DNA of 64,000 nucleotides from an uncultured Planctomycetaceae bacterium (GTDB lineage Bacteria; Planctomycetota; Phycisphaerae; SM23-33), in NCBI GenBank assembly GCA_964642855.1, contig CAZXSK010000009.1, forward strand, positions 12,106-76,105, given 5' to 3'. Below, in pieces: positions 60,128 to 63,769 of this stretch. The notes under the pieces were generated by a model. That model ran no database searches, was not told where the DNA came from, and saw only the letters and a program-made list of their open reading frames with translations. Positions within the stretch are counted from its first letter, which is position 1. Each line of letters starts with the position of its first letter. The translations under genes were made by a program, and so were the position numbers.

Positions 60128-62377
60128 ATGAAACAGATGCTACAGGGCGTAGTTACCATCGCGCTGGTCTGCTGCATGGCAGCCGGGGCGCTGGCGGCGG
60201 ACGACGAACGAAACGATCGGGTGTTGATCCTGCTGGCCGACGGATACAACTCCGGAGAATTCTGGCTGCCGTACCGCACGCTGCAGGCGGCGGGGTACAC
60301 CGTCGACATCGCCGGCCCGGAGAAGGGCACGATCGAGGCGGGCAGAAAGAGCCGCGACCAGGACACCACGGCCAATCTCTCGCTGGACGACGTCAAGCCG
60401 GGCGACTATGTCGGGCTGGTGATCCCGGGCGGATACTCGCCGGGCAACCTGGAGAAACACGAGCGGGCGCTGGAGATCTGCAAGGCGTTCGACAAGGCGG
60501 GCAAGCCGATCGCTGCGATCTGTCACGGCCCGCGTCTGCTGATGCGGGCGGGGGTGATGAAAAGCCGCGTCGGCACGTGCCTGGCCAGTGTGAAGGACGA
60601 ACTCGCCGACGCCTGGAAAAAGGGCGAGTACGGCAAGTACCTCGACCAAGCCGTCGTGGTGGACGGTAACCTCGTGACCAGCCGGTACCCCGGCGACCTC
60701 AAGCCGTTCTGCCGGACAATGCTCGAGACGTTCGCCGAGGCGGGGGGCTTGCAGGCGTCGCAGGTCGGCGGGGGGGCTGTGGTGGTCGCTCCCGAGATGG
60801 ACGGCCATCACCGCTGGCTGTACACGCGTGTGCTGGACATTCTCGGCGTCGACGCCAAACTCGTGCGGAACGACAAGGACATCGCCAAGCTCCTCGCCGA
60901 CGAAGGCTTCGCAGCCGGCGAGAGCGTTTCGCTGCTGGTGGTCCTCGGCGGGAAGGGCGGGCAGGAACTCGCCCAGGGCGAGGCGTTCGGCAAGTTGCTG
61001 AATGAATTCGCCGGCAAGTCGTCGACCACCGGCATCCTGGTCAGCAAGCCGATGGCGGCGGCGCTGAAGGCGTCGGAATCGGGCGAGAAGGCAGCGAAGG
61101 TCCGGCGTTTCGACGGAGACGGCGAGGCGCTGCGGGCAATCTTCACCGAGGCGGGCAAGCACTCGTCGGGCCGGCAGGTGGTAGCCGGGCCGTCCCCCGT
61201 GCGTGCCATCGTGCAACTCGACAGCGGTTTCAGCGATCGTGCCTGGGCGGGGCTGGTGACGATGTTCGGTCGCCATGGCGTCGAGGTCACCGAAGTCCGC
61301 AGCAAGCGCGGCGGCTGGATTACGGGCAAGGCGGGCCTGCCCGTCCACACCCGCGAGATGAAGAAGGGCCAGCAGTTCTCGATGACCCGGACGGCCGACC
61401 TGCTGAAGATCGCGGGCATTCCCGTGCTGATCACCTACGGCGAGCTGCCCGAAGACAAGCTCGAAGCGATGCGGAAGGACCTTCGCGCCGCGGCTGATGA
61501 GTTGGGCAAGGCGGTCGATGCCGCGCCCGTGAAGCTCTCCGACGCGACGGCCGTGATCGCGCTGCGGTCGGGTTATGACGGCCAGACCGTGCTCGGCGCG
61601 ATGACAGCTCTTTCCCGCGCGGGTCACAAGGTTGCCCTGGTGCACCACAACAAGCAGGCGGTCACGGGCGTCAATGGCGTGACGCTGGTGCCGACGGCTA
61701 CGTACGACCAGAAGCCCGGCGACGACAAGGGCTTGTTGGTGGTGGCCCCGGGCGGATACTACCCGGAGAAACGCAAGGCCCGCCAGGCCGACCAGCCCGA
61801 GTGGGTCGCCGCTCAGGACCAGCTCGACCGGCAGCGCATCGATTGGCTGCTCGCCCGGTGGGACCGCGGCGCGACGCTGCTTACCGTCGGGTACGACGGC
61901 TTGATGATCGGCCGGAACAAGGAATTCAAGGGCAAGAAATTCTCCGCCCCGGACCAGACGGTCTGGAGCTTCGGCCGGACGGGGGGCAGGTATTCCGAAG
62001 ACCCCGTCCGCATCACGGCCGAGCGTTTGATCTCCTGCAAGGGTCCGGACGCCTTGGGGCAGGTGATGAACCTGCTGGCCGATAGCGACCTGCTGCCGCA
62101 GAGCACGGCGAGCAGGCCGGTCGACAAGGAGTGGATTTCCGACGAGCTGGTCATCTGCGTCGACAGTAGCGGGGGTTACGCGATCGACGGTAAAGAGCTT
62201 TCTGAAAAGGAGATCCGTGCAAGGATGGTCCGGCTCGCCAAGGGGAATTCGGACCTGCCGATCATCGTGCGGCTGGAGAAAGATGCCCCTTTTTCCGCCG
62301 CGGCGAAGGTGATGGCGGCGATCAAGGAGGCCGGTCTGGCCAAGGAAGGGAAGGTCAAGCTGATCACGGGCGGTTGA
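60128..62377 (+). CDS. secreted protein: three tandem DJ-1/PfpI-like (class I glutamine-amidotransferase-like) domains + C-terminal ExbD/TolR-like domain
   Basis: Signal peptide (VTIALVCCMAAGALA). Domain 1 has the nucleophile elbow ..IAAICHGP... Domains 2-3 keep the fold pattern but lack the Cys (..LVVLGGKGG.., ..LLTVGYDGL..). The last ~75 aa (..LVICVDSSGGYAIDGKELSEKEIRARMVRLAKGNSDLPIIVRLEKDAPFSAAAKVMAAIKEAGLAKEGKVKLIT) match the ExbD/TolR periplasmic-domain pattern. Confidence 0.55.
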   Translation: MKQMLQGVVTIALVCCMAAGALAADDERNDRVLILLADGYNSGEFWLPYRTLQAAGYTVDIAGPEKGTIEAGRKSRDQDTTANLSLDDVKPGDYVGLVIPGGYSPGNLEKHERALEICKAFDKAGKPIAAICHGPRLLMRAGVMKSRVGTCLASVKDELADAWKKGEYGKYLDQAVVVDGNLVTSRYPGDLKPFCRTMLETFAEAGGLQASQVGGGAVVVAPEMDGHHRWLYTRVLDILGVDAKLVRNDKDIAKLLADEGFAAGESVSLLVVLGGKGGQELAQGEAFGKLLNEFAGKSSTTGILVSKPMAAALKASESGEKAAKVRRFDGDGEALRAIFTEAGKHSSGRQVVAGPSPVRAIVQLDSGFSDRAWAGLVTMFGRHGVEVTEVRSKRGGWITGKAGLPVHTREMKKGQQFSMTRTADLLKIAGIPVLITYGELPEDKLEAMRKDLRAAADELGKAVDAAPVKLSDATAVIALRSGYDGQTVLGAMTALSRAGHKVALVHHNKQAVTGVNGVTLVPTATYDQKPGDDKGLLVVAPGGYYPEKRKARQADQPEWVAAQDQLDRQRIDWLLARWDRGATLLTVGYDGLMIGRNKEFKGKKFSAPDQTVWSFGRTGGRYSEDPVRITAERLISCKGPDALGQVMNLLADSDLLPQSTASRPVDKEWISDELVICVDSSGGYAIDGKELSEKEIRARMVRLAKGNSDLPIIVRLEKDAPFSAAAKVMAAIKEAGLAKEGKVKLITGG

Positions 62378-63160: not shown

Positions 63161-63769
63161 ATGAGCGAACGACCGGATACCCACGATGTTGAATTCCTGC
63201 TGTGCCAGTACCTCGACGATCAGCTGTCGAGAAGGCAGCGGCAGGCGCTGGAGACCCGGCTGGCCGAAGAGCCCGAACTGCGGGAACAACTCCGCAAGTA
63301 CCAGACTCTCGACGACCACCTGGCCGACCTCGGCGAAGAAACTCCCGTCGGGATGGACTTCGATTCGATGCGAACCGACGTCCTCGCGGCGGTGGAGAGG
63401 AAAATCATCATGCAGGGCCCGCCGAAGCGCAGGCCCTGGATCATCCGCCTGGGTGTGGGAGCGGCTGCGGCGGCTGCGATTCTGCTTGCCGTGGTCAGCG
63501 TGGTGTTCCTGATGCCCGGCGGCGGAGAAGAAACGTCCAGTCAGCCGGTCGCCAGCAGCGACATGCTCCGGGCAGAGGGTTCCGGTGGCGGAGAGGGACA
63601 GGCCTCCGCGTCGGTCCGCGAGATGGGCTGGGAAGAGCTCTCGCTTTCGGCCGAGATCGACGAGACGACGATGGACGAAGACGTTCCTTCGGGCACGATC
63701 ATCCTTTCGATCGGGTCGGAGCAGACGCCCGAGGACATCCATGGCGGCATGCCCGTGATGATGGAATGA
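63161..63769 (+). CDS. anti-sigma factor (single TM)
   Basis: Directly follows the ECF sigma gene with a 19-nt gap. N-terminal ..LLCQYLDDQLSRRQRQALETRLAEEPEL.. anti-sigma helix motif, one TM (LGVGAAAAAAILLAVVSVVFL), and an acidic C-terminal tail. Confidence 0.5.
   Translation: MSERPDTHDVEFLLCQYLDDQLSRRQRQALETRLAEEPELREQLRKYQTLDDHLADLGEETPVGMDFDSMRTDVLAAVERKIIMQGPPKRRPWIIRLGVGAAAAAAILLAVVSVVFLMPGGGEETSSQPVASSDMLRAEGSGGGEGQASASVREMGWEELSLSAEIDETTMDEDVPSGTIILSIGSEQTPEDIHGGMPVMME

Follow-up and report, generated by a model that had tools for sequence, protein, structure and literature searches.

ExbD and TolR have been studied almost solely as stators of proton-driven envelope motors. The Asp of the transmembrane (TM) helix is essential (D25 in E. 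coli ExbD), and the membrane-proximal linker of ExbD/TolR carries a PsiXPsiXLP motif that is needed for ExbD-to-TonB signalling (bioRxiv 10.1101/797811). In the ExbD dimer this motif makes up the swapped strand (bioRxiv 10.1101/797811; PMC10771500); it is distinct from the D-box, which is a motif of TonB (PMC10907165). Homodimerisation, TonB/TolA capture and peptidoglycan contact by the periplasmic domain have been described in ExbD of E. coli and S. marcescens and in TolR (PMC10771500). The isolated ExbD domain pairs into a swapped homodimer with Tyr112 at its centre, the homodimer clamps a TonB segment between its two protomers, and the domain makes transient contact with peptidoglycan glycan chains; TolR binds peptidoglycan (PMC10771500).

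YhbO/PfpI-type cysteine hydrolases (P. horikoshii PH1704/PfpI, E. coli YhbO; TIGR01382) are cytoplasmic, single-domain and homo-oligomeric. Their acidic triad residue (PH1704 Glu74') is supplied by the adjacent subunit. Arabidopsis DJ-1D is cytosolic and, to our knowledge, is made without a signal peptide. It is a tandem two-domain DJ-1 protein with Cys-His in both domains (PDB 3uk7, 4ofw) and, going by the PDB entry description and by Pfam on relatives of the protein described below, has no ExbD domain.

Gene, signal peptide and DJ-1/PfpI core

Both families are represented in one 749-aa protein encoded in the window, which is the whole 64-kb stretch of DNA analysed. The features are as follows.

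60128..62377, + strand: whole gene, 749-aa multi-DJ-1/PfpI protein, predicted to be secreted, with a C-terminal ExbD-type domain (ORF, translation)
60128..60196, + strand: signal peptide, residues 1-23 (MKQMLQGVVTIALVCCMAAGALA, then ADD), Sec type, with a putative AxA cleavage site (hydropathy, AF2)
60218..60739, + strand: D1, residues 31-204, full YhbO/PfpI-type DJ-1 domain, sole potentially catalytic unit (E44, C132, H133)
60521-60526, + strand: C132-H133 codons of D1
60773..61165, + strand: D2, residues 216-346, truncated, degenerate alpha/beta unit resembling DJ-1, Lys307 in place of the nucleophile (hhalign, AF2 secondary structure)
61202..61513, + strand: D3, residues 359-462, half-domain copying the N-terminal part of D4, with a long helix at its end (hhalign)
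61550..62083, + strand: D4, residues 475-652, full-size, predicted catalytically dead DJ-1 domain with Gly588 at the Cys position (Pfam, hhalign)
61766-61768, + strand: Glu547 codon of D4, at the position of PH1704 Glu74
62084..62143, + strand: flexible linker, residues 653-672 (DSDLLPQSTASRPVDKEWIS) (AF2 pLDDT, alignment with canonical ExbD linkers)
62144..62374, + strand: ExbD/TolR-type periplasmic domain, residues 673-749, beta-beta-beta-alpha-beta-alpha-beta, without a TM helix
62542-63141, + strand: ECF sigma factor, directly downstream (Pfam Sigma70_r2/r4)
63161-63769, + strand: putative anti-sigma factor (tblastn identity in relatives)

The gene runs from an ATG to a stop codon at 62375-62377. 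Its GC3 (0.87) is in the range of genuine genes of the window, with the tail (0.81) slightly below the core (0.86-0.89). Searched whole against Pfam, the protein scored 188.3 bits for DJ-1_PfpI (PF01965, cutoff 26.6), which places it in the DJ-1/PfpI superfamily, and 33.9 bits for ExbD. An independent assembly (Logan SRR10018917) was collinear and 99.3% identical across 3.1 kb, with identical architecture and ORF, so the 749-aa ORF is not an assembly chimera. The fused architecture described in the first-pass annotation was upheld by the intact ORF, the two Pfam matches and this independent assembly. An apparent divergence upstream in L036 was traced to an indel offset, blastn giving 99.3% identity along the entire contig. 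Relative to a 99%-identical contig, 12 synonymous and 4 non-synonymous changes were counted in the gene, a single synonymous one of them in the tail; with so close a contig and one change in the tail, dN/dS was uninformative.

The hydrophobic segment comprises residues 4-22 only, followed by A-L-A / A. Kyte-Doolittle windows above 1.6 were confined to residues 3-26, the AF2 model has a helix at residues 2-23, and N-termini comparable to a signal peptide were found in all family members. These data agree with the signal peptide proposed earlier. Cleavage is predicted from the AxA pattern, and the protein would be located in the periplasm. Hydropathy across the 749 aa gave no TM helix besides the signal peptide and no anchor before the tail. 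One further N-terminal match, to a 4004-aa Alcaligenes Ig-like repeat protein (P0055, 18 stretches), covered residues 5-43 only and is probably spurious.

Domains were counted from the AF2 model (pLDDT 86) and from hhalign comparisons of segments cut from the family alignment. Three tandem DJ-1 domains had been proposed; four DJ-1-derived units were found, at residues 31-204 (D1), 216-346 (D2), 359-462 (D3) and 475-652 (D4). On sequence and model, the core is read as two full-size and two truncated units. Pairwise hhalign probabilities were 94.7% for D1 and D2 (103 columns), 90.6% for D1 and D3, 93.6% for D1 and D4, and 98.5% for D3 and D4. D1 (residues 31-200) scored 146.6 bits against the NCBIfam PfpI subfamily model TIGR01382 (cutoff 139.05), and the D4 segment 28.8 bits against Pfam DJ-1_PfpI; D2 searched alone against Pfam gave no match. 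D3 is missing in shorter family members (~520 aa), and in BLAST one segment of the short homologues aligned to both D3 and D4.

In the alignment, C132 and H133 of D1 correspond to PH1704 C100 and H101, and E44 to PH1704 E15 (DJ-1 E18). Both nucleophile residues are conserved in 35/35 sequences and E44 in 34/35. The nucleophile position is taken by Lys307 in D2 and by Gly588 in D4 (35/35), and D3 ends before the elbow. Nucleophile Cys-His with the conserved Glu was thus found in D1 only, as the first-pass annotation had stated for the Cys, and the sequence supports D1 as the only unit that can be catalytic. Position 106 of D1, equivalent to PH1704 Glu74, is Gly in 30/35 sequences, and Glu547 of D4 occupies the same position in 28/35. 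Retention of Glu547 suggests a single-chain pseudo-dimer. Because D1 has Gly and D4 has Glu547 where the residue is normally provided by the neighbouring subunit, D1 and D4 are probably packed like a PfpI dimer, forming one composite Cys-His-Glu site. Against a composite site, Glu547 is kept in only those 28/35 sequences, and Glu109 of D1, which is invariant, could serve as a substitute.

The ExbD/TolR-type tail and its distribution

The C-terminal tail exceeded the PF02472 cutoff (33.9 bits), reached 67.5 bits with an independent HMM of ExbD, and was predicted with confidence to have the ExbD/TolR periplasmic fold. Its nearest matches were canonical ExbDs with a TM anchor (25/64 identical, up to 39%; score 125), and PDB 8p9r was among its top structural matches. 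With no anchor detected by hydropathy, the earlier assignment of the tail as a genuine ExbD/TolR-type periplasmic domain lacking a TM helix was confirmed. A stator's N-terminal TM helix with its essential Asp is missing, D4 being joined to the tail by ~20 disordered residues (pLDDT below 50 at residues 658-671 of the AF2 model). Because the helix and its Asp are absent, the tail is unable to serve as a stator. The linker (D-S-D-L-L-P) keeps only the LP of PsiXPsiXLP; the two hydrophobic positions, and with them the motif, are lost. As we read the phmmer alignment, the Phe of DAPF retains an aromatic where ExbD has Tyr112.

The core family comprises ~80 clusters in PVC-group MAGs, and its members usually end at about residue 650, tail-free. 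A significant ExbD tail was found in only two lineages among the ~80 clusters, and in 0 of the other 60 family loci. The second lineage (L015) is 38% identical to the query protein in the core and independently has a Pfam-significant ExbD tail, which scored 27.1 bits against an ExbD HMM built without any fused tails. Its linker retains an intact PsiXPsiXLP-like motif (LTVELP; L-T-V-E-L-P), and the Tyr112-position aromatic is the Phe of APFG. The L015 tail resembles the query tail no more than it does the canonical ExbDs, pointing to repeated gain or to long retention. Within the syntenic sister clade, the tail of the positional orthologue P0005 is degenerate (no Pfam match, hhalign 62%, barely or never detected by ExbD profiles and undetected at E<=1 by the HMM without fused tails), that of P0003 has an internal deletion, and P0002, P0004 and P0006 have none. 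A metagenome scan with the tail returned no close relatives, and another, run with the family alignment, returned 26 further family loci, 0 of them with a tail. Conservation of the fusion across Phycisphaerae or Planctomycetia, raised in the first-pass annotation, was not borne out: two lineages of ~80 clusters carry it, with a degenerate remnant in the sister clade. Its sporadic occurrence points to weak or lineage-specific selection for the tail.

Neither did co-occurrence with exbB/tolQ hold within the window, where no MotA/ExbB, tolQ, TonB or second ExbD gene was found among ~50 likely genes. No canonical exbD adjoins the gene in 62 family loci, exbD being the one motor gene covered there. 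The sigma/anti-sigma linkage downstream is common to the three closest relatives only (L001-L003; tblastn 64-66% for sigma, 36% for anti-sigma). The pair is taken as context only. A DUF4159 neighbour was considered as paralogue or partner and rejected (hhalign probability 0.2%; neighbour not conserved at other loci). A promoter and terminator scan gave nothing exceeding background.

ExbD domains well above the Pfam threshold were also found in a protein combining M56/BlaR1 with 2 ExbD domains (P0058), in proteins combining FecR with 3-9 (such as P0059, from a Methylacidiphilales MAG; verrucomicrobial, PVC group) and in proteins with 4-9 (P0056, P0057, P0061). Databases label the multi-ExbD proteins merely 'biopolymer transporter ExbD'.

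Possible roles of the tail

The reading that we favour, with moderate confidence, is a Sec-exported pseudo-oligomer of four DJ-1/PfpI units with a D1/D4 composite site and a tail acting as a periplasmic docking/dimerisation module. The gene product would be a periplasmic single chain that mimics an oligomer of four DJ-1/PfpI-derived units. D1 would be the YhbO/PfpI-type cysteine hydrolase domain (Glu44, Cys132, His133), with D2, D3 and D4 as dead scaffolds, and the composite site would be formed by D1 with Glu547 of D4. In this lineage the entire periplasmic part of an ExbD/TolR protein, its linker together with the alpha/beta domain, has been joined to the C-terminus via the ~20-residue disordered linker, arriving without the cytoplasmic N-terminus and without the proton-conducting TM helix. 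The tail is most likely an autonomous module that holds or pairs the enzyme. By analogy, its means may be homodimerisation, transient binding of glycan strands, or beta-strand capture of a disordered partner segment. Dimerisation and peptidoglycan contact are plausible from the isolated ExbD domain (PMC10771500). ExbD-like dimerisation may not be preserved here, because the two hydrophobic positions lost from the linker belong to the swapped-strand motif.

A rather unlikely alternative is near-neutral accretion, in which a DJ-1 gene was accidentally fused with a truncated exbD/tolR and the added domain folds, has no specific role and is being lost. The mostly tail-free family, the degenerate, deleted or absent tails of the sister clade and the want of partner genes nearby in the window are all in keeping with such a history. 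It is opposed by the preservation of the query tail (33.9 bits Pfam, 67.5 bits HMM, identity up to 39%, confident fold), by a tail of the same kind on the 38% identical core of L015, and by the repeated use of the ExbD module in other periplasmic proteins.

Docking onto a motor, as suggested in the first-pass annotation, appears quite improbable. The tail would pair with a resident ExbD/TolR periplasmic domain or capture a TonB/TolA-like disordered linker; the DJ-1 enzyme would then be tethered to a Ton/Tol proton-driven motor, or the tail would be a decoy that modulates it. Homodimerisation and the clamping of TonB by the ExbD domain (PMC10771500), the nearness of the tail to canonical TM-anchored ExbDs, the match to 8p9r and the signalling linker kept in L015 are consistent with this. 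It is countered by the absence of MotA/ExbB, TonB and ExbD genes among the ~50 annotated genes of the window, by the 62 family loci without an adjoining canonical exbD, by the hydrophobic motif positions gone from the query linker and by a fusion that is sporadic and decaying in sister lineages.

More doubtful still is a generalisation, that TM-less ExbD/TolR-type domains form a general, undescribed class of periplasmic adaptors, at least in the PVC group. Such adaptors would attach soluble enzymes such as the present DJ-1 protein, anti-sigma factors (FecR + n ExbD) and M56 sensor-peptidases either to peptidoglycan or to machinery of the TonB/ExbBD or TolQRA type. If this were true, the position or activity of an enzyme would be physically coupled to a proton-driven envelope motor, or would regulate it.

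An artefact, by chimeric assembly or by a frameshift joining a DJ-1 gene to a separate exbD, is effectively refuted as the source of the fusion: nothing specific favours it beyond metagenome-assembled closest relatives and the slightly lower GC3 of the tail, and it is contradicted by the collinear Logan assembly with the same ORF, by a D4-to-tail gap of only ~20 residues, too short to accommodate the cytoplasmic N-terminus and TM helix that a separate exbD would bring, and by the matching architecture of L015 in another genome.

Comparison with known systems

Relative to the YhbO/PfpI enzymes, the query protein appears to be exported, and three degenerate in-chain copies appear to replace the oligomer. 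The Glu74 equivalent is missing from D1 and is kept by D4. Unlike Arabidopsis DJ-1D, it has Cys-His in one unit only, and it carries an ExbD domain. The core family, in which live and dead domains would split the catalytic residues, is a case where the replacement of subunits by pseudoenzyme domains can be tested.

With the ExbD/TolR stators of the Ton and Tol-Pal systems (PF02472; PDB 2pfu, 8p9r, 5by4, 2jwk) the tail shares its sequence family, its fold and the Tyr112-position aromatic. It differs from them in lacking the cytoplasmic N-terminus and the TM helix with its Asp, in having only the LP of PsiXPsiXLP, in ending a 650-aa soluble enzyme and in having no exbB/tolQ neighbour in the window. 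The query protein, L015 and the FecR- and M56-linked multi-ExbD proteins show the ExbD periplasmic half being employed in evolution as a free-standing module as well. If the tail keeps dimerisation, peptidoglycan binding or strand capture, it would provide a simple, motor-free natural system for these, and it could hint at how periplasmic enzymes are organised in the poorly understood PVC-group bacteria. The significance is moderate, because both points leave current models as they are and few family members have the tail.

The first-pass annotation had called the architecture undescribed. This stood for the fusion itself, no paper on a DJ-1/PfpI + ExbD fusion having been found in the literature; it did not stand for motor-free ExbD domains as such, given the M56, FecR and 4-9 ExbD proteins. 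Like the query protein, the multi-ExbD proteins (P0056-P0059, P0061) have ExbD-type periplasmic domains outside the canonical one-TM ExbD format. They are membrane-anchored signalling or peptidase proteins that carry ExbD repeats in tandem, whereas the query protein has a single copy on a soluble enzyme. The fusion is real and rare, and it looks like the reuse of a mobile docking module rather than a new kind of machine.

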